A DNA stretch of 64,000 nucleotides from a virus (Duplodnaviria > Caudoviricetes): positions 8,781-72,780 of the IMG/VR virus record IMGVR_UViG_3300045002_000015. One strand, 5' to 3'. The notes under the pieces were generated by a model. That model did no database searches. It was not told the origin of the DNA and saw nothing but the letters and a program-made list of their open reading frames with translations. Shown here piece after piece: positions 47,986-64,000 of the stretch. The position numbers and the translations under genes were made by a program. Each line of letters begins with the position of its first letter. The first letter of the stretch is position 1.

Positions 47986-50900
47986 CGCCCGATCCCCCGC
48001 GACCGGTCCGCCCGCCGCTGCCGCCGGCTCGGCGCGGCGGCGCGCGGCGTGCGCTCCGGCGCGCGATCGCGCTCAATCGCCGCGGTCACCGCAGCGGTCG
48101 CCTGCCGGCGGACCACTTCGTGATCCACCGTGCGGCCTTCGGCATCCGCGCGCTCGATCCGGCTCCTGAACTCGAGTTCGATCACATCCGCCAGCATACC
48201 ATCGTAGCCCTTCCCATCCGCGATCTGGCGCGCCCAGGCCGCCGCCTGCGGATCAAGTTGCGGCGCCGACTCCCGCGTCATCGGCCGCTCCGCCGCGGCG
48301 TGGTCGTGGCGCTCGATCGCCGCCACCACCGCATCCGTCGCCCGTTCCCAGAGCGCATCGTGATCCGCTGTGCGGCCCGCCGCCCGCTCGGCTTCCAGCC
48401 GGCTGCGGAATTCGAGCTGCACCACATCGGCGAACATGCCTTCGTAGCCTTTGCCTTCGGCGATCTGGCGCGTCCACACCGCCACGCGAGGATCGATACG
48501 CGGCGCCTCCGGGCCGTCCCTAGCGGCCTCTGGAACAGCCGGGGTATGGGAAGGCGCCCCATGCCCACGCGGCCGCTGTGGCGCCCCTGGCGCCCGCGCG
48601 GCGCGGTCCCAGATCGCGCGCTTGGCCGCCACCGTCCCGCGCTTGACCACTTCGGCCATCCGCGTGAAGTCGGTCGCAAGCTGCTTCAGTTCCTGCCGCG
48701 CCAGATTGCGCGCCATATTGGTCACGATGAATTCCTGCACCGCCGCCCGCCGGGTGATCTGGTTGCGGGGATCGCCGATCGGCCGGCGCTCCTTGATCTC
48801 CTCGAGTTCCGCCCCCTGGCTGGTGATGATCCAGAACCGCCGCCGATGCCGCGATGCCGCAACATAGCCTTTCAGCCCGTTGACCGTCCGCGAGCCGTGC
48901 GGGTAGAGCGCCAGCGCCTCGGTCACGGTGTCGCCCTGGCGGCTGTCAATGGTCATGGCGTCGCCATAGGTCAACCTGATCCGCTCGCCGGTCTCGGGAA
49001 ACCTGAACTGGTCCCACGGCACCGAGGCAACCCGCCCCTTGGCCGTCCGCACCGTCAATCCATCGTCTCGGATCGCCGCCACCTCCACCACGCTGCCATT
49101 GTCGCCGATCCGGCCGATATTGCCCCGCCCGAACCTGCCATAGCCGCGGTTGAACAGTCGCACCCGGTCACCCACCGCGATCGGCAGCCGGTATTCGGTG
49201 CCATGCTGATCAACGGCATCGAGGACCTTGGCATCGCCGCCGATCTCGCCCCGCGACTGGCGGCGCTCCCGGATCGCCGCACCGATCGCCAGCACATCGG
49301 CGTTCGTCGGCACGCTGATCCCGAACCGGTAGCCCGGCTCGGCGGCATGCGCGCGCGTCCGCTCGTCCCAAAGCTCGACGGCGCGCTGGATCGCATCCCT
49401 ATGGTCGCCCGGCACCAGCAGAAGCGTCCCGTCAGCCGCCTTGTGCCGCAGCGCCTCAGCGATCGTCGCCTCGTCACCGGAGTGGAACTTGGCGACAAGC
49501 TCTGCCTCCTCGCGCCGCTGCCGGACGGTCTGCAACAGCGTCGGCAGCTTGCCGAGCACCACTTCGGCCAGCCGCAGTGAATTGCCCGCCTGAATCGGAT
49601 TGCCCTGAAGTTCATGGCCGATACCCACCAGCTTGAAGCCATGCGCATCGCGCAGCTTGGCCAGATCATTCATCATGGCTGTGCCGACCTGGGATAGCTC
49701 GTCGGCGATGACCACGGTGTTCTCGCCCACCGCGATCCTGCCGCGCGCGACGCCATAGGTGAACGCGGCAATCGCCTGCGAACGCTTGACGCCCGAGTCC
49801 TTGCCGGCATGCGCCTGCCGCCAGGGCACTGTCAGGTAAACGGTATCAAGCCCGCGCGCGTGCCACGCTTCCACAAGTGGGGTCAACACGGTCGTCTTGC
49901 CTACTCCAGCAGCGCCACGGCCGACCACGACGCCGCCCGCCTCGCCCAGCGCATGCGCCAGCCCGGCCTGCTCCGCCGTCAGCCTGATACCACTTTCGCG
50001 CGCGACTTTCTCGATCGCCTCGTCGATCTCCCGCGGTGTCAGCGCATGGCGCCTGTCGGTCGCGCCCTTTTTCAGCAAGGCCACGGTCTCCTGCTCCATC
50101 CGCAGGTGCTTTTCCGTGGTGAACCGCTGCCACAGGCTTTCGCCGTCGCGGCCCTCGCCGGGCGGCGCCGGCACCTTGCCCCACAACAGCGCAGTCCGCT
50201 CGCCATCCTGGGCAACGCCTTCGGTGCGGTACGCCTTGGTGAGCGCGGCAATATCGCGCCCCGGATCGTCGCTGATCCCGGCCTCGATCAGCCCTTCCGC
50301 AGCCGCGATGCGTGCCACCTCACCGCCGAAGACCGCGCGCCGGTCCAGTTCCGCCGCGAGTTGCGGCAGTGACCGCTCGAACGCCGCCCGCAAGCGCTCG
50401 CGCTGCCGCGCCAAGAACCGCTCCCGGCCGGGCCGTAGCACGCTGCGGTGGCGGTAACCCGCCGCCTCGGCCTGCCGGTTCCAGGCGTCGAATTGCGGCT
50501 GTTTGTCTTCCGAATGCTTCTCACGGGCGGCCGCAACAGACCGGTCAACCAGCCTGACCCGCTCCTCGACCGACAGCGTGTCCCAATCCAATCCTTGCTC
50601 GCGGGCAAAACCACGTGCCGCCTCATTGCCGTCCACCGTGCGCTTGCTGAACAACTCGACCGCCCAGCGCGGGATATCGCGCACCGCCGCCATCCGGGTC
50701 CGGTCCTCAAGGCCCGCATCAACGCCGTGCTCGCGCAGCCGACGCGCGAGAAACCCTTGATAAACCTTGCCGATCTCCTTGATCTGGCCATTCAGCCGCT
50801 TGCTGTCGATCGCGCCGACATGCCCGCTCTCGGTCATGACCACGTTCGGCGTGATGCAGTGCGTGTGCAGGTGCATATCGCCGATCTGGCCCACCGCCTT

Positions 50901-51470
50901 CAGGATCGTGTTGTCCCGGTCGGCGATCTTGGCGACTGGACGGGCGGTATATTCCTCGAACTTCCACCACATCATGTGGCCTTGTTCGGCGCCTTTGCTG
51001 CCGCCGCGCCCGCGCCGCGCCCAGCCCGTGGTTTGTTCGAGGTAGGCCATGCTGCGGTCGACGGCGTAGCGGTGCGCTTCGAGGAAAATCCCCCGCTCGC
51101 GCTCGGTGGGCGCAAACGCCCAGGCGATCGAGACCGACTTCGGCGCATTCAGCGTGAAATCGTAATAAGTGATCTTCCCCTTCGCTTCGCTCGCCCGCTG
51201 GTATTGCTTGCCCTCGATGCGATCGCCATCGGCGCGCAGACCGCGCACCACGTTGGCCAACTCGCCCTGGGTAATTGGCCGCGCGGTATCGACGCCGAGC
51301 CGTTCGGCCAGCGGTGCGTACGCCCCGTCGCGCGCCGTCCCTTGCACGGCCTTGCCGTAATAACCGGCCACCAGGTCGGCGACGGATGGCTCCTGCATGG
51401 CGACATAATATTTCGCGATCTCGCCAGCGGCGAAGCTCGTCGTGGCGACGCCATCGCGGAAGGTCAGCAC
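47982..51470 (-). CDS. MobF (TrwC-like) relaxase-helicase
   Basis: Start reassigned to GTG at 51470 (MLTFR, GAGG RBS); KYY/GYY, YDFTLNAPKSVSI, DMHLHTH, FSKRT; helicase GAAGVGKT, DE, QTVRQR, YGDAMTIDSRQG. Confidence 0.93.
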   Translation of the reverse strand: MLTFRDGVATTSFAAGEIAKYYVAMQEPSVADLVAGYYGKAVQGTARDGAYAPLAERLGVDTARPITQGELANVVRGLRADGDRIEGKQYQRASEAKGKITYYDFTLNAPKSVSIAWAFAPTERERGIFLEAHRYAVDRSMAYLEQTTGWARRGRGGSKGAEQGHMMWWKFEEYTARPVAKIADRDNTILKAVGQIGDMHLHTHCITPNVVMTESGHVGAIDSKRLNGQIKEIGKVYQGFLARRLREHGVDAGLEDRTRMAAVRDIPRWAVELFSKRTVDGNEAARGFAREQGLDWDTLSVEERVRLVDRSVAAAREKHSEDKQPQFDAWNRQAEAAGYRHRSVLRPGRERFLARQRERLRAAFERSLPQLAAELDRRAVFGGEVARIAAAEGLIEAGISDDPGRDIAALTKAYRTEGVAQDGERTALLWGKVPAPPGEGRDGESLWQRFTTEKHLRMEQETVALLKKGATDRRHALTPREIDEAIEKVARESGIRLTAEQAGLAHALGEAGGVVVGRGAAGVGKTTVLTPLVEAWHARGLDTVYLTVPWRQAHAGKDSGVKRSQAIAAFTYGVARGRIAVGENTVVIADELSQVGTAMMNDLAKLRDAHGFKLVGIGHELQGNPIQAGNSLRLAEVVLGKLPTLLQTVRQRREEAELVAKFHSGDEATIAEALRHKAADGTLLLVPGDHRDAIQRAVELWDERTRAHAAEPGYRFGISVPTNADVLAIGAAIRERRQSRGEIGGDAKVLDAVDQHGTEYRLPIAVGDRVRLFNRGYGRFGRGNIGRIGDNGSVVEVAAIRDDGLTVRTAKGRVASVPWDQFRFPETGERIRLTYGDAMTIDSRQGDTVTEALALYPHGSRTVNGLKGYVAASRHRRRFWIITSQGAELEEIKERRPIGDPRNQITRRAAVQEFIVTNMARNLARQELKQLATDFTRMAEVVKRGTVAAKRAIWDRAARAPGAPQRPRGHGAPSHTPAVPEAARDGPEAPRIDPRVAVWTRQIAEGKGYEGMFADVVQLEFRSRLEAERAAGRTADHDALWERATDAVVAAIERHDHAAAERPMTRESAPQLDPQAAAWARQIADGKGYDGMLADVIELEFRSRIERADAEGRTVDHEVVRRQATAAVTAAIERDRAPERTPRAAAPSRRQRRADRSRGIGR

Positions 51471-51544
51471 CGCTGCGCCTCGATGCCGGCCTCGGCGGGG
51501 TCCATTTCCGTACCCTAAAGCCCAGCGCGCGGCTTTTGCAACAG

Positions 51545-51568
51545 GCACCGTATGGTGCAATGGTCTGA
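51545..51568 (+). other. Putative oriT nic region
   Basis: GCACC-GTAT-GGTGC hairpin followed by AATGGTCT; resembles R388 GCACCGAAAGGTGCGTATTGTCT nic; lies between relaxase and divergent triplet. Confidence 0.7.
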
Positions 51569-51678
51569 TTTTGTGACCGCCGCCTGGAACCGGCAAAATA
51601 TCCGGGTTCACGGCACGCGGTGCGCAACCGAAGAACGCGGCTTGTGCAACCACGATTGCGTCTGATAGGATGTAACCA

Positions 51679-53336: not shown

Positions 53337-53501
53337 ATGACGGTTAATATTCCAGACGATCTCAGGAGTGCCGTGCATTTAGACGAGCCTGTCCCAGGCG
53401 GCACTGCATGGATCAGAAAATACCAGGACGGGAAGGCAAGCGAGCCAACGCCTCCTTTCATTACGGTTGCAATCCTCGCGAATACGTCCATCGCAAGATA
53501 G
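53337..53501 (+). CDS. Small hypothetical protein (54 aa)
   Basis: GAGGAGGAG RBS; below ORF-track cutoff. Confidence 0.45.
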   Translation: MTVNIPDDLRSAVHLDEPVPGGTAWIRKYQDGKASEPTPPFITVAILANTSIAR

Positions 53502-53558
53502 CACGATGTAGAGCCTCCGCCGCGTCTATTGTCGAGCTGACTACAACCAGCCACTCGG

Positions 53559-53792
53559 TCACGGTCCATTTGGAGGTGACGGCAGAGCCATCCAATGTGT
53601 TAGTTTCCAGTCGCAGTCTGAAAGACCTCCATGCTCGCTATTTCCTGACCATGCCGGCCCCGTTCCCTCCACCCAACAGAAGCGGCCGTTGAAGAACCCC
53701 ACGGTTGCCACGCACTCTCCATCGGTGGCTATAAGGACCGATCCATCTTTCGGGGCCGTCCCGATTGGCTGCCACCGGGGTTCGTCTGTCAT
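53559..53792 (-). CDS. DUF551-like phage protein
   Basis: WQPIGTAPKDG..THWMALPSPP. Confidence 0.8.
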   Translation of the reverse strand: MTDEPRWQPIGTAPKDGSVLIATDGECVATVGFFNGRFCWVEGTGPAWSGNSEHGGLSDCDWKLTHWMALPSPPNGP

Positions 53793-53902
53793 AGACCATT
53801 CTCCCAACTCAAGCCTTCTCCTCGCTCCAACGCTTCGCGCGCCCTTGTGGCGAACCAGGTCCGGTCAGGGTTGTCATTGTCATTGGTGGTTTTGTCGCTC
53901 AT
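53789..53902 (-). CDS. Cassette micro-ORF MSDKTT-NDNDNPDR (37 aa)
   Basis: Manual translation; overlaps both neighbours. Confidence 0.5.
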   Translation of the reverse strand: MSDKTTNDNDNPDRTWFATRAREALERGEGLSWENGL

Positions 53903-54084
53903 AGCGGCAGTCTCCGTCCATACAGCGCGCGCAAGAATTGGGACGCTGTCCTGCGCACCATTGCGTTGTCGTCCGCATCCTTGGGCTGGCCCATGATGCG
54001 CAGCAGCTCACGAACATAGCATTCGGCATGCCTCAATAACTCATCGTGGCCTGCAATAGCGGTCGTCTGGTTCTGATCAGCCAT
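53899..54084 (-). CDS. Cassette ORF MADQNQTT-AIAGH (cassette A, intact copy)
   Basis: Second copy at 57398-57572. Confidence 0.65.
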   Translation of the reverse strand: MADQNQTTAIAGHDELLRHAECYVRELLRIMGQPKDADDNAMVRRTASQFLRALYGRRLPL

Positions 54085-54298
54085 GATTTACCACTCCACA
54101 GTATCCTGCTTCCGGCCCGCGCCCCATACCGTCCATCGGCGTCCATGAAGGCAAGCACCGGGAGCACACCCAACCTTCTTCTGTTCCGTGCTCGCCGTAT
54201 TTGAACCAGCCGTAGGGGCCGCGCCCCAACCATCGACCACAAGCACAACGCGGGCGCATGATCGCCTCCCACCTGCGGGTCGTATTCCCCTTGCTCAT
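54077..54298 (-). CDS. Cassette ORF MSKGNTT-, Cys-rich
   Basis: CACG and CSRC pairs. Confidence 0.6.
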   Translation of the reverse strand: MSKGNTTRRWEAIMRPRCACGRWLGRGPYGWFKYGEHGTEEGWVCSRCLPSWTPMDGMGRGPEAGYCGVVNHG

Positions 54299-54606
54299 TG
54301 CCGACCTTCCACATGCGCTAAGAGGTCGCGTGCTTCTTGCATCAGTCGGGCCTCGTTTGCAGCGTGCCGCTCCTGGTGCCACGCGCCGCCAGGAAGTGCC
54401 ACGAAGCGCTTGACAAGGGAAAGTAGCTCCGGCGCAGCAGCAATCAGACGTGCAGTTCCAAGGTTGCCATCTGAGGCCATAAACGCGACGCGGTTGTCAG
54501 TCCCTGCGACGCAGACTTCGCTGGGGCTCCCGAGCTTGTCTCCCTGAAGCCATACGACTTCCCAGGGGCCGGGCAATGGGGTCGTTTGGGATTTACCGTC
54601 AGTCAC
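54295..54606 (-). CDS. Cassette ORF MTDGKSQTT-PLPGPW, phage hypothetical
   Basis: PGPW..ARLIAAAPELL motif typical of small phage proteins. Confidence 0.75.
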   Translation of the reverse strand: MTDGKSQTTPLPGPWEVVWLQGDKLGSPSEVCVAGTDNRVAFMASDGNLGTARLIAAAPELLSLVKRFVALPGGAWHQERHAANEARLMQEARDLLAHVEGRQ

Positions 54607-54802
54607 GTTTGCAGGCCTCCACCATTGAGGGAGCCATCACTACGTTGCGCATACGCTCGGCGATGCGCGCTGCTTCCTTGCTGCGCTCACGGGCTGGCAG
54701 ATACGCGATACCATCAACCGTGTGAGCCATGCGCACGACCCACGCACGGAGTGCAACTAGTTCTGACACCGCGTCTGGGGTCGTTTGGTTATAGTCAGCC
54801 AT
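54599..54802 (-). CDS. Cassette ORF MADYNQTT-
   Basis: Overlap-coupled ORF. Confidence 0.6.
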   Translation of the reverse strand: MADYNQTTPDAVSELVALRAWVVRMAHTVDGIAYLPARERSKEAARIAERMRNVVMAPSMVEACKRD

Positions 54803-54983
54803 GATCTACAATCCTCAACGAGCGTCGTAGGGCGCCGTCCATGACGCGCGAAAATCGAAGGTAATTCGGACACATCTCGGCACTGGTGCCCACGTAGCCT
54901 TGCAAGCAATCGGCGCGTTGTTCCATGCCACAGCCAGGGCATGGACTGGTCGTCTTGTCGTGCGGTTTCTGATGGTCACTCAT
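54795..54983 (-). CDS. Cassette ORF MSDHQKPHDKTT-, Cys-rich
   Basis: CPGC..C..C. Confidence 0.6.
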   Translation of the reverse strand: MSDHQKPHDKTTSPCPGCGMEQRADCLQGYVGTSAEMCPNYLRFSRVMDGALRRSLRIVDHG

Positions 54984-55284
54984 CAGCGAACATCCTGTAG
55001 CCGTTTGTGGGATGGCCGGCAGTGAACATGTCAGCAGACCGTTGAATGAAGGAGCGAGCTTCGTCCTCCGTCATCCACCCGGCATCGAAAGGCCCAGTGC
55101 CGAAGTCCTCTTCATAGGACCACTCAGGAGCGGCCACGATATCGTCGCCGCCGATATTCATGCGCCAGCTATCGTAGCGCGCCCGAAAGTAGAATGGTTT
55201 GCCATTTATGGTGCCCTCAGCCTGCACTGGGCAATTGCCACCTAACATCTGGATCACGACCTCGGCTGTCGTATCGTTAGTCAT
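54976..55284 (-). CDS. Cassette ORF MTNDTT-, hypothetical
   Basis: GGNCPVQAEGTINGKPFYFRARYDSW. Confidence 0.7.
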   Translation of the reverse strand: MTNDTTAEVVIQMLGGNCPVQAEGTINGKPFYFRARYDSWRMNIGGDDIVAAPEWSYEEDFGTGPFDAGWMTEDEARSFIQRSADMFTAGHPTNGYRMFADE

Positions 55285-55523
55285 CGGCTGATCTCCAATC
55301 GGGCCTGTCCAAAGCCGCAGCACTCGCACTGCCAGTAGAGCCATGCATCTGTCGGATCAGTAACTTCACACGTAGGGTGGGCCTCGATGCACGCGCCTTC
55401 CTCGAACCAGTCGAAGTAAATTGTTGAGACGCCACGATGCGCGCCGCTGATCTCGACCACGGAGCCGCGCACCGTCTGATAGCGCGCGGTCGTTTGGGAC
55501 GCGAGCTTCTGATCTGCACTCAT
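55281..55523 (-). CDS. Cassette ORF MSADQKLASQTT-
   Basis: Overlap-coupled; CECC near C-terminus. Confidence 0.6.
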   Translation of the reverse strand: MSADQKLASQTTARYQTVRGSVVEISGAHRGVSTIYFDWFEEGACIEAHPTCEVTDPTDAWLYWQCECCGFGQARLEISR

Positions 55524-55732
55524 GGGTCGCACCTCTTGCACAGGATCGGGACAGGTGCCCGATGCTCTTTGATATAATCAAACGGCTTTCGACACTGCTC
55601 GCATGAAGCACTTCCCCACGTCACGACTGGCGTTGAGCTTGTCCATGAAAACTGTCCGGGCAGAACGGCGGGGCTGAACACGACATTCCCCACGGTCGTC
55701 GGGTTATCGGCCATGGTCGTTTTGTCGCTCAT
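55520..55732 (-). CDS. Cassette ORF MSDKTT-MADNPTT-, Zn-ribbon-like
   Basis: Two tandem junctions; CEQC and CKRC. Confidence 0.6.
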   Translation of the reverse strand: MSDKTTMADNPTTVGNVVFSPAVLPGQFSWTSSTPVVTWGSASCEQCRKPFDYIKEHRAPVPILCKRCDP

Positions 55733-55998
55733 GCTGATTTTCCGCACTTGATTGTCTTTGCCTCTGGGTGATCGAACGCCATGTGGATTATGCTGCGCAG
55801 CTCACGTTTGATGGCATGATCCAGTTCGACGCCCTCGGTGTAGTCGATGTCGTCTCTCAGGTAGCCACCAAGGCTCAGCATACCGATCAGATCGGATGCC
55901 CAAACTGTCATCTGCTCGTCGTGACAGACAGCTTCGGCGGCAGCCTTCGGTCCGAGGATGACGGTCGTCTGGGAACTGTGCGGTTGATCGTCACTCAT
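55729..55998 (-). CDS. Cassette ORF MSDDQPHSSQTT-
   Basis: Overlap-coupled ORF. Confidence 0.6.
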   Translation of the reverse strand: MSDDQPHSSQTTVILGPKAAAEAVCHDEQMTVWASDLIGMLSLGGYLRDDIDYTEGVELDHAIKRELRSIIHMAFDHPEAKTIKCGKSA

Positions 55999-56173
55999 CG
56001 CTATCGTCTCCATCGTCCAGGCGCCCGCTGCCGCCACACTCGGGGCACTCGCCAGTAGAGCCGCAGAAGTCGCACCCCTCACCATCGCACGCTGGGCATT
56101 CACCAGTCTCAACGCACATAGGACACCGGCCGTCGAAGGCGGCCTCGTAATCCGGCCGCTTGCGCTCAGACAT
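55991..56173 (-). CDS. DnaJ-like Cys-rich zinc-finger miniprotein
   Basis: CPMC..CPACDG..CDFCG..CPECGG. Confidence 0.65.
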   Translation of the reverse strand: MSERKRPDYEAAFDGRCPMCVETGECPACDGEGCDFCGSTGECPECGGSGRLDDGDDSDE

Positions 56174-56246
56174 AGCCGAGGCCCTCGCATGTTGGGCATT
56201 TGGTGATGGTAATGGCGTGGTTGGTCTGAGGGACGTCATTGGCCAT
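56166..56246 (-). CDS. Cassette micro-ORF MANDVPQTN- (26 aa)
   Basis: CPTCEGLG; variant junction. Confidence 0.4.
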   Translation of the reverse strand: MANDVPQTNHAITITKCPTCEGLGYV

Positions 56247-56577
56247 TTGCAAGCTCCCGCACCTTGGCGTTGATAACTTCGCACATGGCGAAGCCGATTG
56301 ATTCAGCTTCACGAATGCGGCCACGAGAATAGGAGCCCTGCTTACCCTCTAAGTCGGTGTCAGCAACGTGTCGCAGAATTTCATCGTCGGCTGTCGCGGC
56401 GCACAGTTCCACAATCTCGTCGCGCACCCAACGCAGGAGATCGATAGCTTGCTGATTGGGTAAGTCGGACACGATCTTAGCTCGAGGTATGTCAATCTCT
56501 GTCAGTGTCGCAGTCACTACTATAACTGACCGGTCAGGGTTGTCATTGTCATTGGCCGTCTGGGAATTGTCATCCAT
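56236..56577 (-). CDS. Cassette ORF MDDNSQTA-NDNDNPDR
   Basis: Shares 26 bp with 53861-53886. Confidence 0.6.
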   Translation of the reverse strand: MDDNSQTANDNDNPDRSVIVVTATLTEIDIPRAKIVSDLPNQQAIDLLRWVRDEIVELCAATADDEILRHVADTDLEGKQGSYSRGRIREAESIGFAMCEVINAKVRELANGQ

Positions 56578-56776
56578 GATTTATCACTCTCCTAGTCCAG
56601 GCAATTGTCGCGGCCACCATGGCTGTGCAATAGAGAAAAGCAAAGAAGCAGACCGCATAAGTCAGCGGCCAACACGGGTAAGCGATGAGCGAGGCCATTG
56701 ACGCGATGATTCCGATACCAGAGCCGATACACACGACGGTCGCATTGTACTCTGTAGCGGTCGTTTTGTCGCTCAT
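56570..56776 (-). CDS. Cassette ORF MSDKTT-, 2-TM membrane protein
   Basis: Two hydrophobic segments. Confidence 0.6.
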   Translation of the reverse strand: MSDKTTATEYNATVVCIGSGIGIIASMASLIAYPCWPLTYAVCFFAFLYCTAMVAATIAWTRRVINHG

Positions 56777-56922
56777 GGTTCATCGTCCTCTATCACTCTA
56801 CGGCAGTGCGGGCAGCGGTCTCCGACCAAATCCGGATCACCTTCCCATCCGCAGCTTTCACAGACCCATGAGCCGCCCTTATGCTCCCAAGGGTCAGGCG
56901 CCTCGGTCGTTTCATCCTTCAT
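56773..56922 (-). CDS. Cassette ORF MKDETT-EAPDPW, Zn-ribbon (cassette B copy 1)
   Basis: CESC and CPHC; second copy at 57252-57403. Confidence 0.65.
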   Translation of the reverse strand: MKDETTEAPDPWEHKGGSWVCESCGWEGDPDLVGDRCPHCRRVIEDDEP

Positions 56923-57118
56923 CTGGTTGATTCTCCCTATTCCATTCCTCAATGGTCTTTGCCTCATTGAAGTAGGCGTGATGGCGCTTATCAATGATGT
57001 CGCGAACACGGTCGGCGAATGGATTGTCCCTGGCGTCCTCAGCAAAGAATGTCGCGTCAAAGATTTCTCGCACGGTTTCCTTCCACGCTGACTCGACAGT
57101 CGTTTTGTTCTCAGACAT
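56912..57118 (-). CDS. Cassette ORF MSENKTT-
   Basis: Overlap-coupled ORF. Confidence 0.6.
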   Translation of the reverse strand: MSENKTTVESAWKETVREIFDATFFAEDARDNPFADRVRDIIDKRHHAYFNEAKTIEEWNRENQPDEG

Positions 57119-57269
57119 CCTGAAGCCCCTTCAACCTATTCGCCTTTACCTCACACGCATGCGCTTCCGCCGAAGCAACGAGCGCTTGCTGACGTAACTG
57201 CACAGCGCGTTCGTAAAGGTAATCAGCGTAGTCTCGCCGTAGGTCAGCTTCGGTCGTCTTGTCGCTCAT
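57111..57269 (-). CDS. Cassette ORF MSDKTT-EADLRR (52 aa)
   Basis: Manual translation; helical. Confidence 0.55.
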   Translation of the reverse strand: MSDKTTEADLRRDYADYLYERAVQLRQQALVASAEAHACEVKANRLKGLQDV

Positions 57270-57415
57270 GGTTCATCGTCCTCTATCTCTCTGTGACAGC
57301 ACGGGCAGCGGTCTCCGACCAAATCCGGATCACCTTCCCATCCGCAGCTTTCACAGACCCATGAGCCGCCCTTATGCTCCCAAGGGTCAGGCGCCTCGGT
57401 GGTTTTGTCGCTCAT
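57266..57415 (-). CDS. Cassette ORF MSDKTT-EAPDPW, Zn-ribbon (cassette B copy 2)
   Basis: Same body as 56773-56922 with a different leader. Confidence 0.65.
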   Translation of the reverse strand: MSDKTTEAPDPWEHKGGSWVCESCGWEGDPDLVGDRCPCCHREIEDDEP

Positions 57416-57587
57416 AGCGGCAGTCTCCGTCCATACAGCGCGCGCAAGAATTGGGACGCTGTCCTGCGCACCACTGCGTTGTCGTCCGCATCCTTGGGCT
57501 GGCCCATGATGCGTAGCATATCGCGAACGTAGTCTTCGGCGTGCCTCAATAATGGCCTGCAATAGCGGTCGTTTGCTCGTCGCTCAC
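57412..57587 (-). pseudogene. Frameshifted copy of cassette A (MSDEQTT-AIAGH, 7-bp deletion)
   Basis: CGATGAG missing relative to 53899-54084, giving an early TGA. Confidence 0.7.
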
Positions 57588-57778
57588 TTGATTCTCCCAC
57601 ATCGCATGCAGCGTTCCTCGTATGGGTTGATCTGTTCCCAATCGTGGCCACCGAAGTCTTCTGCGCACAATCGCTCTCGTGTAGCCTGTCGCATCCCGAA
57701 GCCCGTGAAATGTCGCGGCAGGTTCTGTTGGTACTGATGGATGATCGCAGGTCCGGTGGTTGAGTCCTGGTTAGCCAT
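57584..57778 (-). CDS. Cassette ORF MANQDSTT-
   Basis: C..GHDW..CMRCG. Confidence 0.6.
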   Translation of the reverse strand: MANQDSTTGPAIIHQYQQNLPRHFTGFGMRQATRERLCAEDFGGHDWEQINPYEERCMRCGRIK

Positions 57779-57956
57779 GATTTGCAATCTCCCTGATCTT
57801 GGCCTCCGCTCGAATGAGCGCATTCCACTGCGCCTTGGTCCCGCAGGTTTGCCTCCTCCATTCGCTGAAGTCGCGGGCATTTCCGTCCGTCATCTGGCTA
57901 ATAGCTTCCAGAGCAGCTTGCGCCTCATCCCGCGTAAGTGTCGTTTTCTCGCTCAC
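57771..57956 (-). CDS. Cassette ORF MSEKTT-
   Basis: Helical; overlap-coupled. Confidence 0.6.
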   Translation of the reverse strand: MSEKTTLTRDEAQAALEAISQMTDGNARDFSEWRRQTCGTKAQWNALIRAEAKIREIANHG

Positions 57957-58135
57957 GACATGATCCTCCTAAGTGCGGCTTCGGCCCTCTTCAGACACTC
58001 ACACTCAGCGCCGCATCGACAGGGATCGGGGCATCTGCGGTTCTTGGCTATCTGATCGCGAGCCGATAAGACCCAGCCAATTTCCTCCGCAGTGAAAGCG
58101 GTCGTTCGGTTGCTGCGGTCCTGATGGTCACTCAT
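57953..58135 (-). CDS. Cassette ORF MSDHQDRSNRTT-, Cys cluster
   Basis: CPDPCRCGAECEC. Confidence 0.6.
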   Translation of the reverse strand: MSDHQDRSNRTTAFTAEEIGWVLSARDQIAKNRRCPDPCRCGAECECLKRAEAALRRIMS

Positions 58136-58304
58136 GGTATTTGCTCCACCTCCAATCCGCATATTCTATGTCGGCTGCCGTTGGTTCCCTGCACTCCCAG
58201 ACCGGCATCAATCGGTAAAGTTCCCACACCACAAACATACTGCGGTGTGTGGCTAGAGTGATATGAGACGGGAAATCGTCAGCGGTCGTTTTGTGATCAG
58301 TCAT
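58128..58304 (-). CDS. Cassette ORF MTDHKTT-
   Basis: Overlap-coupled ORF. Confidence 0.55.
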   Translation of the reverse strand: MTDHKTTADDFPSHITLATHRSMFVVWELYRLMPVWECREPTAADIEYADWRWSKYHE

Positions 58305-58491
58305 TCGGATATTCCTCTCTGGCTTCCAGAGCCTCATCGTCCATTCTGTCCTGCAAGCGAGCCAACGCCTCGTGCATCCGTCGTGATGCCTCGCGCTGCT
58401 GGTAAGTCATGCCGTCCCTCTCGATTGCCTGAAGCATCTCAGCCAATTCGCAAAGAGCCTCATCTCGCAGTGTCGTCTCAGCTTTGCTCAT
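58297..58491 (-). CDS. Cassette ORF MSKAETT- (first of array)
   Basis: Start overlaps end of the resolvase-fold gene. Confidence 0.6.
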   Translation of the reverse strand: MSKAETTLRDEALCELAEMLQAIERDGMTYQQREASRRMHEALARLQDRMDDEALEAREEYPND

Positions 58492-59152
58492 TCTGAATCT
58501 CCTTTCGTTTGGCTCTCGCCCGCTTCATTCCAGCCCTATGGGCGATTGCCCATCGTCTAGTGGGTAAGTGCTCTCTAGCTGTCTTCCAGGCCATCGGCTG
58601 CCAGTGGCCACGCTTGGTCTTACGGCCAGCACGGTGCAACAGTTCCTGCAACGTGAACTTGGGGTTTCCCCAGTCCTTCTCAATCAGCTTCACACGGCGC
58701 TTGGTATCGGCCAGCTTCTGTTCGGCAGTAACCTCCCAGCCGGCCCGGCCGGGCTGAACGGCGCCGCGCCGCTTGTCGGCCACGAAGTCTTCCTGGGCTT
58801 GCGCAATTTCGTCGGCACCAGCATCCGGTCCGATCTTCAGGCCGGTATTCAGTGCCACCAGCGTAGCGCCCCGGGCCTTCGCGGCAGCAAGGCAGCGCCC
58901 CAGGTCGCGCAGGTCGAACGCCAGCAGCCCCCAGCAGGCAAAGCGGATCGTCTCATCCCTCGACTGGCGGCCTGTTTGCGCCATCATCTTTCCGCGCCAA
59001 TAAAGCGCCGCAGCGTCCTTCCGCTTACGCTCACCCGGCCTTAGCTCATCCTGGTACTCGGCCTTGGCTTTGCCAGCGGCATCAAGCAACTCCCGCTGGG
59101 CCTCCCAGGTCCAGACCTTGAGGATATTGCTGAGATAGTTGATCTCGGGCAC
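58478..59152 (-). CDS. Divergent serine-recombinase (resolvase)-fold protein with basic C-terminal DNA-binding region
   Basis: Resolvase-like layout (NY..AQRELL..EYQD..R..DETIRFACWGLLAFDLRDL..KARGATLVALNTG); canonical YxRxS and DRLGR not conserved. Confidence 0.6.
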   Translation of the reverse strand: MPEINYLSNILKVWTWEAQRELLDAAGKAKAEYQDELRPGERKRKDAAALYWRGKMMAQTGRQSRDETIRFACWGLLAFDLRDLGRCLAAAKARGATLVALNTGLKIGPDAGADEIAQAQEDFVADKRRGAVQPGRAGWEVTAEQKLADTKRRVKLIEKDWGNPKFTLQELLHRAGRKTKRGHWQPMAWKTAREHLPTRRWAIAHRAGMKRARAKRKEIQNEQS

Positions 59153-59225: not shown

Positions 59226-59450
59226 ATGACGGACAAGCGAGTGAAACCCCTAGCCCTGGAGGCTCCTATGGCTTCTACTTCCTCTCTTCTCTCCGTCTCT
59301 TTCGCTGACGCCAACGGCGTCTGGTCCGTCTCTCGCTACTTCAACACCATCCGCGCCGCCCGTCGGTGGGCGAAGTGGCTCAGCGGCCATTCTTATGTTC
59401 GTGAGGTGGCGATCCATCGAGGCGGCCAAGGAGGCGAGCGGGTCTCCTGA
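59226..59450 (+). CDS. Small hypothetical protein (likely start 59268)
   Basis: GGAGG RBS before MASTSS. Confidence 0.6.
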   Translation: MTDKRVKPLALEAPMASTSSLLSVSFADANGVWSVSRYFNTIRAARRWAKWLSGHSYVREVAIHRGGQGGERVS

Positions 59451-59497
59451 CCCGCTTTATCTGACAAACGATCAAACCCCTGTATCGGAGGAAACCT

Positions 59498-59683
59498 ATG
59501 AGCGAAGCATTCACACGCAACGATCTGATCGGTCTAGCCGAGTTGTTCAGGCTTGCCGTCCAGACCAATCCTCACGTCATCCCAGGTGTTGTGCCGGTGG
59601 CTCTGTCGCCCGATGACTGCGTGAGGATCGCAGACATTCTCACTGCTGAGATTGAGCGCCGTTGGATGGCGGTCGAGGCGTAG
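59498..59683 (+). CDS. Small hypothetical protein
   Basis: GGAGG RBS after junction. Confidence 0.65.
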   Translation: MSEAFTRNDLIGLAELFRLAVQTNPHVIPGVVPVALSPDDCVRIADILTAEIERRWMAVEA

Positions 59684-59712
59684 GTAGAAAACCCCTGTAT
59701 CGGAGCGGAGCT

Positions 59713-60021
59713 ATGGCCGAAGCTAGCGATCTCTTACGGCGCGTACAAGAGAAGAAAGCAGCGCTGACTGTCGTGACAGACCCCAAGGCCGGCGAGCAGT
59801 GGGGCGAGATGTCGTGGCCTGGCGTATTAGACCAGCCAGCCAGAACTGGACGGCAGATGCTTGAATTCGTGGCGCAGCAATATGGTAAGGTTGGGTGGGA
59901 GATAGGCGACCTCAAGGCGTTCTGGGACGCGTCTCCAACCGGAGAATTGTCCCACGTGTTCGAGTCGTATCAAACGGCATGTATGATCTACGAAGCAGAG
60001 CGTGAGTTGGAAAGCCACTAA
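59713..60021 (+). CDS. Hypothetical protein
   Basis: GGAG RBS after junction; ends TAAACCCC. Confidence 0.65.
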   Translation: MAEASDLLRRVQEKKAALTVVTDPKAGEQWGEMSWPGVLDQPARTGRQMLEFVAQQYGKVGWEIGDLKAFWDASPTGELSHVFESYQTACMIYEAERELESH

Positions 60022-60043
60022 ACCCCGATCTAGGGACGCGAAG

Positions 60044-60256
60044 ATGGTACGGAGCATTGTGATGAGCGGACTGGGGATCACAGTAGGAGCGCATGCCTCG
60101 GAAAGGCGTTCCGCGCAGTTCCTCGCAGAGCTTGAGGAAGTTGAGGGCATGACGCCTGGGCAGCTTCGCGTCGAGTGCCAGAAGATGGCCAAACAAGGCG
60201 GCTTCTCCGGCATGGTCGCGACGTTCGCGCTGGACCGCTACGACAACAAGCGCTGA
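60044..60256 (+). CDS. Small hypothetical protein
   Basis: Bounded by junctions at 60020 and 60256. Confidence 0.55.
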   Translation: MVRSIVMSGLGITVGAHASERRSAQFLAELEEVEGMTPGQLRVECQKMAKQGGFSGMVATFALDRYDNKR

Positions 60257-60264
60257 AACCCCCG

Positions 60265-60504
60265 ATGAGTCCTGAGCGCCTACGCGAGCTGATTGCGATG
60301 ACCGGCCTAGAGCGGCGGGAACTTGCCCGCCTGCTCGGCTATGGCTCCGACAACAGCCTACGCCAGTGCGAGCGAGGGAAGGCGACGCTTCCAGCCGACA
60401 AAGCGAAGTGGCTGGAGGGCTACGCTAAGCTGCGCGCAAGGCATGCGGAACAGATCGCCAAGTGGCTCCAGAAAAATCCGCCGCCCAGCGAAAATAACGG
60501 TTGA
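60265..60504 (+). CDS. XRE-like HTH protein
   Basis: LERRELARLLGYGSDNSLRQCERGKATLP; similar to 14944-15240. Confidence 0.75.
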   Translation: MSPERLRELIAMTGLERRELARLLGYGSDNSLRQCERGKATLPADKAKWLEGYAKLRARHAEQIAKWLQKNPPPSENNG

Positions 60505-60531
60505 CTTCTATGCGCGATGCGCGCATATACT
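60501..60531 (+). promoter_or_regulatory. Internal promoter with palindromic operator
   Basis: TTGACT..TATACT flanking TATGCGC-N5-GCGCATA. Confidence 0.6.
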
Positions 60532-60555
60532 AGGGGCATCAAGACGGAGACGGAC

Positions 60556-60810
60556 ATGGCTATCAATCTTCCGAAGTGGACGGACTGCACCACAGAGCAG
60601 CACATTCGTGCTGGCGCATATCGCGCTGCGGCTGAGCGGCTCGCCATGCTGCACCGGGAATACGTCAGTGCATGCGAGCGTTGGCAGACCGAATGCGCGG
60701 CAGATGGAATCGATCCAGAGCTTGAGCGCGATTACTATGAAATCGATAAGCTGGCTATGCGAAGGAACGCCGCAGAAGCGAACGCAATCGGCTTCGCCAG
60801 CGCTTACTAA
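60556..60810 (+). CDS. Hypothetical helical protein
   Basis: GGAG RBS; ends TAAACCCC. Confidence 0.65.
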   Translation: MAINLPKWTDCTTEQHIRAGAYRAAAERLAMLHREYVSACERWQTECAADGIDPELERDYYEIDKLAMRRNAAEANAIGFASAY

Positions 60811-60852
60811 ACCCCAGTTACCTTCCGGCGCCTCGCGGATCAGGGGCGGAGA

Positions 60853-61110
60853 ATGGAGATGACGAACCATCCGAACCGAAAGAAACCGGTACCTCCTGCG
60901 GTTAAGCGTTACATGCAGGAGTTTGGAGAGACGGAGGCCGATTTCAGGAAATGGTTGGGTATTCAAAGGGATGCCCACAAAGCCATTGCCGACTGCTCTG
61001 ACGCCAATGGTAACCGAATAGGGCTTGTGACATGGGTTGCATACAAAATGGGATGTTCGGCCGCAGCCGCAAAGAGCGCACTAGCATGGGCCGGAATCAT
61101 CGAGACATAA
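60853..61110 (+). CDS. Hypothetical protein with TNHPNR N-terminus
   Basis: Ends TAACCCCC. Confidence 0.65.
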   Translation: MEMTNHPNRKKPVPPAVKRYMQEFGETEADFRKWLGIQRDAHKAIADCSDANGNRIGLVTWVAYKMGCSAAAAKSALAWAGIIET

Positions 61111-61131
61111 CCCCCGAAAGGAAGCCCTCAG

Positions 61132-61392
61132 ATGACCTACGTAGTTCGCGAGATCGAAACCGGGTTCATCATCGTCGGATCACAGGGCGCGCTACTACGC
61201 GATGGTGGTGCTGGCATGAACGGTGAACCGCTGGTCTGGCGTGAGCGCGCTAGGGCAGAGGCCAAGGCTGAGTGGATGAACCGCGTAGTTGCATCGGCCT
61301 TGATGACTAGATCAGAGCGTAGAACACTGCGGAACGAGATCGCCACGAAACATGGCATAAGTGCCGACACTGCACGTGGCCTTCTGAACTGA
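61132..61392 (+). CDS. Hypothetical protein
   Basis: AAGGA RBS after junction. Confidence 0.65.
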   Translation: MTYVVREIETGFIIVGSQGALLRDGGAGMNGEPLVWRERARAEAKAEWMNRVVASALMTRSERRTLRNEIATKHGISADTARGLLN

Positions 61393-61418
61393 CATAAACC
61401 CGATCTTGGAGAAAAGCC

Positions 61419-61598
61419 ATGTGCGGCCCAAGCATCACCCAACTCCTCGCCCGCGAAGGCATCACGCACGAGCGAGATTCCTGGACTGCCAAGGACCATT
61501 GCCACCGCCTTTACGCCAACGGCGAATACATCGGACGCTACGATGCCGCTCAGGCCGTCAAGTTTCTCGAAGCGTTGACCCACGAGAAGCTAACATAA
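61419..61598 (+). CDS. Small hypothetical protein (59 aa)
   Basis: Manual translation MCGPSITQLL..; GGAG RBS; ends TAACCCC. Confidence 0.6.
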   Translation: MCGPSITQLLAREGITHERDSWTAKDHCHRLYANGEYIGRYDAAQAVKFLEALTHEKLT

Positions 61599-61612
61599 CC
61601 CCGGAGAACGAC

Positions 61613-61816
61613 GTGCATCACATCGCCAAGCAGGACGACAAGCTCTACATCTACTCGATGGGCAAACGCCTTCGGGTTACCGCCGTTTTCTCTGACGATG
61701 AATCGGCCAACGCACACATGGCGCGCCATTCCGACGATGCGGTGATCGCCTGCTTTGGCCAGTTCGTATTCCTGGCTAATAAGTATGACCACGGCGAACG
61801 CGCCGCAGTGTCCTGA
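61613..61816 (+). CDS. Small hypothetical protein
   Basis: GGAG RBS plus GTG right after junction. Confidence 0.6.
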   Translation: MHHIAKQDDKLYIYSMGKRLRVTAVFSDDESANAHMARHSDDAVIACFGQFVFLANKYDHGERAAVS

Positions 61817-61838
61817 ACCCCAGTCTAGGAACCCAACA

Positions 61839-62039
61839 ATGACTTTGGATGAAAAGTTTGGCGAGAAGTCTGGTATGACAAAAGAACGGAGATACGAACA
61901 AGTACTGAAGCAAATCGCGGAGGGCAGTGATGCTGTGCCGGCACATGCCTGGAGGTACTTGGCGCACACCACGCTGGGTGAGTTCGGCGTTTCCTCCGAG
62001 TACCGAGAGGATGAGCGCCACCCATGGCCCGAAGACTAA
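61839..62039 (+). CDS. Small hypothetical protein
   Basis: AGGA RBS; ends TAAAACCCC. Confidence 0.6.
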   Translation: MTLDEKFGEKSGMTKERRYEQVLKQIAEGSDAVPAHAWRYLAHTTLGEFGVSSEYREDERHPWPED

Positions 62040-62203
62040 AACCCCGTCCAGCTTACACATACTGCATCTACGAGAAGTCTGAGACCGACTATCGCGTGAT
62101 GCACGGCAACAAGATCGTCAGCCGACACAGCACCGAACAAGAGGCCCGTGCCGCGCTTAAACGCGATTTTTTCAAAGAAACACTAAACCCCGGAGTAGAC
62201 TGA
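62024..62203 (+). CDS. Small hypothetical protein (59 aa) spanning two junctions
   Basis: MARRLKP-RPAYTYCIYEK..ETLNP-GVD. Confidence 0.5.
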   Translation: MARRLKPRPAYTYCIYEKSETDYRVMHGNKIVSRHSTEQEARAALKRDFFKETLNPGVD

Positions 62204-62454
62204 TGCAGTACGAGCAAACAGCGCGCCGGATGAGTGCGATGGACATTCACCCCAGCCTACGCATCACAGACACAGGTCCGGCGATCGGCACCTATCGAGG
62301 CAGGAAGATTGCCGAGTGGATCGACAGGGCCGGCGAGCGGTTCCTGTATGATCGTCCAGCGGTGGAAGATGCTGACGGTGGCGTGCCGCTGTCACAACTC
62401 AGGTCGGACGAGTTCGTGGTCGCTCCCGGCCTGATCTATCGACGTGCGACATAA
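62203..62454 (+). CDS. Hypothetical protein
   Basis: GGAG RBS; ends TAACCCCC. Confidence 0.65.
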   Translation: MQYEQTARRMSAMDIHPSLRITDTGPAIGTYRGRKIAEWIDRAGERFLYDRPAVEDADGGVPLSQLRSDEFVVAPGLIYRRAT

Positions 62455-62474
62455 CCCCCGAAAGGACCTATGCC

Positions 62475-62687
62475 ATGACCGTCACGATCGAGATAATCGG
62501 TCCTCGCGATGAGATCGTTGAGATGGGCCACTTTATATCGGACGCTATAGGGCTCAACATGGATCGGGCGCGGCGCCCTAGACCTCTACTGCGCCGTCTG
62601 ATTGATTCATGGAAGCCTGATGTCTTAGCGTACCCCATGATCGGCAGCGAGGGTCACGGCGCGGCGTTCAAGTACCGGAGCAAATAA
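62475..62687 (+). CDS. Small hypothetical protein
   Basis: AAGGA RBS; ends TAAACCCCC. Confidence 0.6.
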   Translation: MTVTIEIIGPRDEIVEMGHFISDAIGLNMDRARRPRPLLRRLIDSWKPDVLAYPMIGSEGHGAAFKYRSK

Positions 62688-62705
62688 ACCCCCGAGAGGA
62701 AGGAT

Positions 62706-62888
62706 ATGTTAGCTTATGTGATTCTAATGTGCCTCGGCGGTAGCCAGTGCATTCCGTTCCCTATATCGTTCCAGGATTTGGCAACGTGTCAGGCTAATGT
62801 CAGCTACTTGAATGGCTCGGCGCTCAGTCAGGCAGTGACCTCTCGTTGTGAACCGTGGAGCCTCGTTCCTTCGGACAAGAAGTCCTAA
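62706..62888 (+). CDS. Small exported Cys-containing protein
   Basis: Hydrophobic N-terminus, four Cys. Confidence 0.6.
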   Translation: MLAYVILMCLGGSQCIPFPISFQDLATCQANVSYLNGSALSQAVTSRCEPWSLVPSDKKS

Positions 62889-62911
62889 ATCCCCGGATAA
62901 AAAGGTCGCCT

Positions 62912-63037
62912 ATGCGTGATCCATTCCAGCAGTTCGTCACTTTTGGCCTTCCTGCAAGAAATGGGCGCGCGATCTGGATCACGCCAAGGCAGCGTTTGCG
63001 TATCACTGCCACAATGACCCAGCCTGGAAAGCGTTAG
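62912..63037 (+). CDS. Micro-ORF (41 aa)
   Basis: AAGG RBS after junction. Confidence 0.4.
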   Translation: MRDPFQQFVTFGLPARNGRAIWITPRQRLRITATMTQPGKR

Positions 63038-63074
63038 GCGAAGCCGAAATCAATAGAAGGATCGACGTGCTAAC

Positions 63075-63323: not shown

Positions 63324-63357
63324 GACGAAACCCCACTCAAGGGAGGCCATTACACCC

Positions 63358-63540: not shown

Positions 63541-63602
63541 CCTAAACCCCGGTAGGGGGCGGCATAAAGATTAATGAGTAGCCCGAGAGAGGCAAAAAAC
63601 AC

Positions 63603-63785: not shown

Positions 63786-63794
63786 ACCCCCGTC

Positions 63795-63989: not shown

Positions 63990-64000
63990 CCCCGGATGAG

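Follow-up and report, generated by a model that had tools for sequence, protein, structure and literature searches.

Introduction

The described systems closest to the locus that we analyze here are integrons, the promoter-early stem-loop (PeSL) shuffling of T4-type phages, the small serine recombinases (for one of its proteins) and the leading-region anti-defence islands of conjugative plasmids; the Rci shufflon is compared here as well. The locus lies in a 64,000-nucleotide stretch (hereafter, the window) of a Caudoviricetes record, positions 8,781 to 72,780 of IMGVR_UViG_3300045002_000015, and the window is thus part of a 72.8-kb IMG/VR entry. It consists of an array of about 25 mini-genes on the minus strand, most of which open with a short leader that ends in two threonines encoded by a conserved hexamer, and which follow a gene that we call the anchor gene. 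Comparison of the window with related contigs showed that the units of this array are shuffled, with the joints piling up inside the hexamer and the reading frame preserved.

Like integrons, the array is one-directional and made of apparently promoterless cassettes in which the unit is an open reading frame with a recombination site at its 3' end. Both systems have a fixed head region whose end carries the first site, and a short conserved core at which units undergo duplication, loss and re-ordering. Unlike integrons, the array comes without an IntI-type tyrosine integrase (PF00589 search of the 72.8-kb record), and its junctions, 18 to 36 nt in length, lack the inverted repeats and the single-strand fold of attC sites. 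Its crossover falls within coding sequence, in frame, so that a cassette has no start of its own: it takes the ribosome site, the start codon and the first 6 to 13 codons from its upstream neighbour. The host, moreover, appears to be a phage/conjugative hybrid.

PeSLs (Arbiol et al. 2010, PMC2839356; Comeau et al. 2014, PMC4122927) combine promoter and terminator in an intergenic motif, and their recombination relies on homologous stretches of tens of nucleotides. As in the array, a short repeated expression signal between small non-essential phage genes serves as the point of swap, gain and loss among close relatives, and insertions, deletions and replacements between relatives end in the repeated motif (here in the related contig L016 and in contigs from other sequencing runs). 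In contrast to PeSLs, the array junctions have no intergenic space, no stem-loop and no promoter signal; the joint is a translation-initiation module, with a crossover at a 6-nt in-frame core and a microhomology of sometimes only 3 to 5 nt.

With the small serine recombinases (gamma-delta/Tn3 resolvase, Sin, Hin/Gin), the modelled anchor protein shares the predicted fold, a similar size and a helical C-terminal part, whereas it has no sequence-level match to them and its catalytic Ser and Arg positions appear substituted. The presumed sites in the array also differ, being direct, asymmetric and inside genes, without two inverted half-sites around a 2-nt crossover. The shufflon recombinase Rci uses inverted 19-nt repeats and inverts segments, while the array junctions are all direct repeats. 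Finally, leading-region anti-defence islands of conjugative plasmids, as set out in the consulted sections of Samuel et al. 2024 (PMC11541004) and Shaw et al. 2026 (PMC13478746), are clusters of small genes on the relaxase/oriT side, on the strand that lets the transferred strand act as template; the array, a cluster of small genes on the strand of the relaxase gene, probably lies on that side too, and like the islands it shows signs of tuning for fast translation. They differ in that no array cassette matches a known anti-defence family in Pfam and PHROGs scans, and in that in-frame shuffling of cassettes at a standard joint is a feature of the array that those sections of the two accounts do not describe. 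What is new here is the in-frame crossover just after the start codon, by which a cassette donates the translation start and the N-terminal codons of its neighbour, and the setting of this arrangement beside the relaxase of a hybrid element.

Two duplicated units end at an in-frame hexamer

The first-pass annotation, made from the letters of the window, had proposed that two cassettes, units A and B, each occur twice with all breakpoints on a junction hexamer. Both were recovered as real repeats by a repeat search, by global alignment with 40-nt flanks and by blastn:

53885 to 54066, minus strand: unit A copy 1, comprising the gene 23 body, the stop/start overlap and the next leader; hexamers at 54061-54066 and 53885-53890
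57398 to 57572, minus strand: unit A copy 2, with a 7-nt frame-shifting deletion; hexamers at 57567-57572 and 57398-57403
56759 to 56910, minus strand: unit B copy 1, comprising the gene 10 body (for a zinc-ribbon-like mini-protein) and the next leader; found by repeat search, alignment and blastn
57252 to 57403, minus strand: unit B copy 2, the body of gene 7 with the next leader; the hexamer at its upstream end doubles as the downstream one of unit A copy 2

The copies of unit A are 94% identical over the first 155 nt without gaps and 90.8% identical over 185 nt with gaps, while those of unit B, 152 nt each, are 93-95% identical. The hexamers that bound the units read, on the plus strand, GGTGGT at 53885-90 and 57398-403 and GGTCGT at 54061-66, 57567-72, 56759-64, 56905-10 and 57252-57; on the minus strand these are ACCACC and ACGACC, both encoding Thr-Thr. 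All 15 minus-strand occurrences of ACGACC between 53.5 and 58.5 kb are in frame and lie 3 to 11 codons after a start codon. Given this placement, and blastn E-values for the A and B repeats of 1e-66 to 1e-70, chance is excluded as an explanation for either the repeats or the hexamers.

In the alignments with 40-nt flanks, identity collapses within 0 to 3 nt outside the hexamers and the neighbouring sequences are unrelated. Homology running well past the hexamers, which would have told against the proposed boundary, was not seen in these alignments. The substitutions between copies are also clustered as described, with 6 in about 17 nt in unit B and 8-9 in about 33 nt in unit A. The earlier account of unit A copy 2 was right about its placement and needs correcting in two details, in that the reading frame is not intact and the leader starts with GTG instead of ATG. 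This copy measures 175 nt against 182 nt owing to the 7-nt deletion, and its reading frame ends after 13 codons (57587-57546); it is a broken copy. A third shared piece, 26 nt in length and 100% identical (53861-53886 and 56530-56555), starts directly after a hexamer. A homologue search with the unit A protein found nothing beyond the protein itself. Unit B also occurs in a related locus, L005, where it is the first cassette and where the similarity spans exactly the stretch from the leader end to the stop codon.

Related contigs carry the same units in other orders

To look at the array in its population, we compared Logan contigs of four soil and rhizosphere runs with positions 53500-58600 of the window: X1, the source run; X3, from the same soil sample; and X9 and X10, from other studies. 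One X3 contig runs in the order 53889-54063, 433 unknown bases, 55268-55487 and 54779-54959, and a second joins a segment ending at 58471 to 57568-57754 and then to 54948-55272. Contigs from X9 and X10 join 58473 to 57102 and to 56763. Altogether, 19 of the 28 joint or loose-end positions (15 of 24 distinct ones) lie at most 2 nt from a leader hexamer, against a chance expectation of 4.7%; the others are mostly at start codons. Parts of the array had no contig cover in runs X3, X9 and X10. The sequencing runs listed as carrying this DNA included no RNA run.

A further comparison came from L016, a 26-kb JGI contig found via exact-sequence look-ups of seven cassette proteins, whose backbone is 96.5% identical to the window over 4.6 kb. 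L016 carries ten units of the window in scrambled order (18, 5, 1, ..., 19, 17, ..., A, 24, 25, 20, ..., 8, ..., 9, by the gene numbers used below), four of which are 99.4-99.7% identical to their counterparts in the window. Among the 20 block ends, 16 fall within 6 nt of a hexamer and 2 at a start codon; in L016, the gene 8 unit alone has its downstream boundary at the start codon and not at the hexamer. For three L016 joints, both parents are present in the window at 99.5% identity, and the letters shared at the joint number only 3, 5 and 10. Several of the rearrangements separate units that differ by 0.3-0.6%, and the backbone differs by 3.5%.

Protein clusters gave the same picture from another side: seven bodies of the window each appear behind two or three different leaders, and individual leaders recur on different bodies. 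The body of gene 5, for example, sits behind the gene 19 leader in L016, that of gene 17 behind the gene 20 leader in both L016 and run X3, and that of gene 1 also behind three other leaders. Since 8 of the 9 shared bodies keep their downstream leader and hexamer, the moving unit is a body together with the stop/start overlap and the leader of the next gene, in agreement with how the first-pass annotation had delimited the units. The Logan contigs, L016, the protein clusters and the ends of homology at the hexamers thus all support the earlier proposal that the hexamer is a real recombination boundary.

By-products of shuffling are visible as well, namely near-empty units, in which an 18-codon frame consists of a leader and the next junction (the form to which gene 24 is reduced in run X3 and L016), tandem leaders and in-frame fusions of bodies. 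At L016 7264-7662, two bodies are fused in frame via a leader with no stop between them, such that the leader is internal to a 132-aa frame, and the 182-aa protein P0030 joins a zinc-ribbon body to the gene 18 body through a stretch ending in Thr-Thr. From these two fused forms it follows that the junction can also build multi-module proteins. The Thr-Thr array of L016 further includes one large member, an N6/N4 DNA methyltransferase (3872-4699). At the position of the anchor gene, L016 (1997-2603) has instead a 51-aa gene and a gene for a 152-aa T5orf172/MUG113 (homing-endonuclease-like) protein.

Chimeric assembly as a source of the joints

Duplicates and alternative orders of this kind could also be produced by chimeric assembly of mixed strains across short repeats. 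The source sample does contain strain variants side by side (runs X1 and X3), and the refuting scenario of the first-pass annotation is thus partly relevant; the X1 Logan contigs break at units A and B, and the depth of segment 56878-57331 is 7.6, against 10.5-12.9 in its flanks. No long read spans the array, and for the exact order of units over long distances the window contig depends on the original assembly. Mixed strains do not, however, explain away the hexamer joints, given that the variants themselves differ at the hexamers: even if contigs were chimeric, the points at which the variants diverge would still be the hexamers. The alternative joints occur in three studies and under two assemblers (Logan contigs and the JGI contig L016), and the letters shared at junctions number 3-10, or up to 18-36 where a whole leader, present once per genome, is shared. 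The Logan assembler uses a word length of 31 letters; most of the shared junction stretches are shorter than that, and repeats this short cannot mis-join its contigs. In run X1, the piece shared by the A copies has a depth of 25, compared with 10.5-12.9 at all four flanks, as expected of two copies in one genome, and a 57-nt X1 contig (57371-57427) bridges the B/A joint at full depth. On these grounds, we regard an assembly artefact as very improbable.

The lower depth between the two B copies (genes 8 and 9; 56878-57331) is what would be expected after loss of the segment by recombination between them, and it hints that part of the population lacks this segment.

Leaders and hexamers recur behind homologues of the anchor gene

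The gene at the head of the array was used to search for related loci:

58478 to 59152, minus strand: anchor gene, encoding 224 aa with a predicted serine-recombinase (resolvase) catalytic-domain fold; its 3' end encodes the first leader and hexamer

Its protein has 14 metagenomic homologues at 60-76% identity, and in all nine loci that carry an anchor homologue, the gene heads the array. In every locus with both an anchor homologue and downstream sequence (L005, L006, L008/L009, L010, L011, L012 and L013), coupled mini-genes with Thr-Thr leaders follow the anchor, and almost no cassettes are shared between the loci. Conversely, homologues of two bodies, one of them that of gene 18, occur without a leader in unrelated phage contigs (L002-L004, L014 and L015). 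Considering that these out-of-lineage homologues have no leader, the leader belongs to the array and not to the proteins.

Outside the lineage, L015 carries a unit B homologue (103-255) whose leader ends in Pro-Thr (CCCACC) and is directly followed by the same Glu-Pro/Ala... body; CCCACC is one base off the hexamer, and this junction may be a trace of gene capture into the system.

Searches of the array DNA against phage and plasmid collections gave no match, and no anchor relatives were found in viral and genome contig collections; a metagenome scan for anchor relatives added two short loci only.

A motif at the junction extends to silent positions

To characterize the junction, we compiled statistics over 35 leaders, taken from the window and from related loci. 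ACG serves as the first Thr codon in 29 of these 35, and ACC as the second in 23, while ACG and ACC account for 28% and 22% of the Thr codons in bodies. It is this enrichment at leader ends relative to bodies that shows the constraint to reach silent positions. Bias extends to five positions upstream of the hexamer and to one behind it, for a motif of roughly A-C-n-A-R-ACGACC-G/C, and information content falls to about zero from two positions past the hexamer, such that conservation is confined to one side. Synonymous hexamer variants (ACGACA, ACCACC, ACGACG and ACTACA) are tolerated. The junctions are direct repeats on one strand only, and none of the units was observed in inverted orientation. 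A search of IMG/VR for the exact 18-nt leader gave no match.

The comparisons show the array to be a hypervariable set of translationally coupled, apparently promoterless mini-genes beside a relaxase gene. What moves is not a single gene but a body with its stop codon, followed by all that starts the next gene: ribosome site, start codon and a leader of 6 to 13 codons ending in Thr-Thr, usually ACGACC. These units, of which A and B are two that occur twice, are duplicated, lost, re-ordered and exchanged between related elements, and a crossover inside the hexamer lands any body in frame behind the leader at the target. In the reading that we propose, crossover would be directed to A-C-n-A-R-ACGACC-G/C by a position-specific, integron-like process, and not by homology alone. 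The case for such a process derives from the conservation of silent sites, the extended motif, the joints with only 3-5 shared letters and the moves within 0.3-0.6% divergence, along with the recurrence of leaders and hexamers in every such anchor locus, the leaderless body homologues outside the lineage and the resolvase fold of the anchor protein; in our judgement, the arguments for and against it are evenly poised.

Candidate enzymes and competing explanations

The anchor protein is one candidate for an enzyme acting at the junctions. In its structure model (mean pLDDT 77.8), it has the fold of a resolvase catalytic domain: residues 1-130 align to 2gm5_C with a Z-score of 13.4 and an rmsd of 2.5 A over 109 residues, 44 chains reach a Z of 8 or more, all of them serine recombinases, and the top Foldseek matches agree. 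A protein atlas placed a resolvase cluster at rank 7 with a score of 0.88, which is a weak lead, and a profile of the anchor family found nothing at E 10 among PDB sequences.

It could thus be that the anchor protein is itself the cassette recombinase and recognises the junction motif, which would make the array an integron analogue built on a different enzyme. The strong fold match to the gamma-delta, Sin, Tn3 and Gin recombinases (Z 9-13) speaks for this, as do the place of the gene at the array head in all nine loci, where its 3' end supplies the first leader and hexamer, and the nearly invariant Ser at position 8 of the family. The equivalents of Arg8/Ser10 and of Asp67/Arg68/Arg71, by contrast, are not conserved in the register obtained, no sequence-level Resolvase match exists, L016 has a shuffled array without an anchor gene, and the sites lack the two-fold symmetry of resolvase and invertase sites. 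The register was derived gap-free from model residues 2-130 aligned to chain residues 2-119, together with the family alignment. By this register, the anchor protein seems to be without the catalytic residues, making it a weak candidate for a recombinase, or possibly a regulator; we consider it unlikely that it is the enzyme.

A second candidate lies in the general-recombination module of the element:

25868 to 26737, plus strand: RecE-like exonuclease (phrog_412, DUF3799), an alternative candidate for the shuffling

The neighbouring presumed annealase (24921-25538) received no name from PHROGs. With this module or with host enzymes, the joints could arise by short-homology recombination, either relaxed homologous or microhomology-mediated, followed by selection. 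Concatemers or co-infecting relatives would recombine at any place with a few letters in common, and only in-frame joints at leader ends would survive, much as with PeSLs, while the standard junction of ribosome site, start codon, A-rich leader and Thr-Thr would be kept for expression. The presence of the RecE-like exonuclease is in favor of this explanation, and the variable crossover point and the boundaries at start codons (the other conserved island) fit it better than they fit a position-specific process. One joint shares 10 letters, and searches for an active dedicated recombinase found none. Set against these points is the microhomology of 3-5 letters at some joints, as annealases are known to need far more homology than that. 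Joints elsewhere in the leader or in the first body codons should be viable too, yet they are rare; silent-site conservation and the extended motif would need a separate explanation; and many single-unit moves have taken place within 0.3-0.6% divergence. Precedents exist both in the PeSLs (PMC2839356, PMC4122927) and in relaxed recombination by phage recombinases (PMC3945230). We regard this explanation as the main rival of the position-specific process and as somewhat less probable than it.

A number of observations weigh against the position-specific process proposed above. The crossover point within the hexamer varies, in that position 3 goes with the leader or with the body depending on the joint, a minority of boundaries lie at the start codon, and the RecE-like exonuclease could act on short homologies. 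The enzymes named here are candidates. No single-strand fold was found at the junctions when 76-nt windows at 22 junctions were compared with shuffled sequences on both strands (mean z of -0.1 and +0.15 on the two strands, compared with -0.04 at control positions), and the repeat search found neither inverted repeats nor dyad symmetry there. The anchor protein has no Resolvase Pfam match even at E 10; in the implied register, its family has Ser8/Ile10 where resolvases have Arg8/Ser10, and no conserved arginines follow strand 3 (the arginines of DRLGR are missing). The array of L016 is shuffled although the contig lacks the anchor gene. As for tyrosine recombinases, PF00589 had no match at E <= 1 in the 72.8-kb record, which is estimated to be 85% complete, while all 14 of 14 control genomes matched. 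The Pfam Resolvase model, searched across the record, gave no match either.

We also considered that the hexamers are nic-like sites cut by the TrwC-type relaxase, and dropped this idea when a weight matrix of 22 junctions found no comparable backbone site near the relaxase; only four hits of at least 12 bits lie outside the array, all of them far away. A nic-like string at 53521-53533 was dismissed, as it travels with a cassette in L016.

Returning to the position-specific process, one form of it would be a dedicated cassette system of a new type, parallel to integrons but made of unrelated parts, in which an enzyme would recognise the asymmetric in-frame motif of about 11 nt after the start codon and excise and re-insert units. 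Candidate enzymes for such a system would be the resolvase-fold protein or a product of the backbone common to the window and L016. It would continually re-deal early accessory genes and would also fuse protein modules in frame. We place the probability of such a system a little short of even.

Organization of the array

The array, from its last gene to its first, occupies the following interval:

53559 to 58491, minus strand: the whole mini-gene array of about 25 genes; stop and start codons overlap, and 21 leaders end in Thr-Thr

The genes are 26-113 codons in length, and each overlaps the stop codon of the preceding one. The 21 genes with a complete leader have 6-13 codons ending in Thr-Thr, whereas two have a degenerate leader and two have none. 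Within the array, we counted 5 promoter-like sites, versus 2.0 +/- 1.3 expected, and 5 terminator-like sites, versus 4.7 +/- 2.4 expected. With so few internal promoter- or terminator-like matches, the array would read as a single translationally coupled operon. The cassettes are mostly orphans: Pfam and PHROGs scans recognised three phage families of unknown function plus DUF551, and the matches to these families begin only after the leader. In addition to the units listed earlier, the genes are:

58297 to 58491, minus strand: gene 1; hexamer at 58471-58476 (ACGACA), leader overlapping the 3' end of the anchor gene
58128 to 58304, minus strand: gene 2; hexamer at 58284-58289 (ACGACC)
57953 to 58135, minus strand: gene 3, with a long leader; hexamer at 58100-58105 (ACGACC)
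57771 to 57956, minus strand: gene 4, with a GTG start; hexamer at 57939-57944 (ACGACA)
57584 to 57778, minus strand: gene 5; hexamer at 57755-57760 (ACCACC)
57111 to 57269, minus strand: gene 8; hexamer at 57252-57257 (ACGACC)
56912 to 57118, minus strand: gene 9; hexamer at 57098-57103 (ACGACT), body seen with three different leaders
56570 to 56776, minus strand: gene 11, a hydrophobic mini-protein; hexamer at 56759-56764 (ACGACC)
56236 to 56577, minus strand: gene 12; degenerate hexamer at 56554-56559 (ACGGCC, Thr-Ala), then the 26-nt piece shared with gene 24
56166 to 56246, minus strand: gene 13, 26 codons; without a clean Thr-Thr leader
55991 to 56170, minus strand: gene 14, a Cys-rich mini-protein; without a Thr-Thr leader
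55729 to 55998, minus strand: gene 15, with a long leader; hexamer at 55963-55968 (ACGACC)
55520 to 55732, minus strand: gene 16, with tandem leaders; hexamers at 55715-55720 and 55694-55699
55281 to 55523, minus strand: gene 17; hexamer at 55488-55493 (ACGACC)
54976 to 55284, minus strand: gene 18; hexamer at 55267-55272 (ACGACA), match to phrog_10518
54795 to 54983, minus strand: gene 19, with a long leader; hexamer at 54948-54953 (ACGACC)
54599 to 54802, minus strand: gene 20; hexamer at 54779-54784 (ACGACC), body seen with three different leaders
54295 to 54606, minus strand: gene 21, with a GTG start; hexamer at 54580-54585 (ACGACC), match to phrog_1273 from residue 11 on
54077 to 54298, minus strand: gene 22; hexamer at 54278-54283 (ACGACC)
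53789 to 53902, minus strand: gene 24, a 37-codon remnant; hexamer at 53885-53890 (ACCACC)
53559 to 53792, minus strand: gene 25, the last in the array, DUF551-like; without a Thr-Thr leader

In gene 16, the 21 nt that separate the two hexamers amount to a leader without a body. An exact 19-nt direct repeat (53436-53454 and 58353-58371) has one copy in the gene 1 body and the other in the 180-nt spacer between the far end of the array and the backbone, and may be the remnant of a former cassette.

Genomic setting of the array

The window encodes phage packaging proteins, a portal (6501-8597) and a terminase (12511-13806), as well as conjugation proteins, namely VirB4 (30230-32875), a TrbI/VirB10-like protein (37678-38763), VirB11 (38760-39740) and a coupling protein (40980-42983), together with a relaxase:

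47982 to 51653, minus strand: TrwC/TraA-type relaxase, 1223 aa, on the same strand as the array; PF08751 match on its L016 orthologue

This gene content suggests that the record is a phage/conjugative hybrid, or else two elements in tandem. The array shares its strand with the relaxase gene and lies upstream of it, with 1.9 kb between the start of that gene and the array. Based on this position and strand, and on the general rule for the orientation of leading regions, in which the transferred strand is the template (as given in PMC11541004), the array would be the probable leading region, transferred first and with the transferred strand as template. The origin of transfer (oriT) and nic were not located, and the position of the array relative to the relaxase was read from the gene layout.

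Several other features of the element stand apart from the array. The portal (Phage_portal_3, 6501-8597) shares a single 698-aa frame with an InPase (pyrophosphatase-like) domain fused to its C-terminal side. The proteins at 39737-41119 and 9189-10952 have weak matches to glycoside-hydrolase family 5 (cellulase), both scoring at or just under the Pfam threshold, and one of the two is encoded between virB11 and the gene for the coupling protein. On the plus strand, another array of small genes, divergent from the first, occupies 59244-64000 and is punctuated by AAACCCC, with 12 exact copies within these 4.8 kb and 15 on that strand across the window as a whole; in relatives, this motif likewise marks the arrays on the opposite strand (4 copies in L005, 7 in L007 and 3 in L008). 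A block at 59663-60027 is common to L016 (1346-1707, 97%) and ends at a copy of AAACCCC.

Discussion

The genes of the array probably act early or in establishment, for example in anti-defence, and shuffling would vary which of these functions are present and in what order. Its junctions amount to a natural "standard part" design, in which any body can be placed behind any translation start while frame and coupling are kept. Here, gene shuffling with a swap point inside the reading frame is shown at the population level in natural samples.

The chance that a dedicated enzyme is at work, and that the array is thereby a new kind of system, is substantial. If that is true, the integron principle would have been invented a second time, independently, in an element that combines a phage head with conjugation. 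The array would also offer a way to study how these elements maintain early genes that change fast, probably ones for anti-defence or establishment. Even if general recombination is responsible, the array is an unusually clean case of second-order organisation for evolvability.

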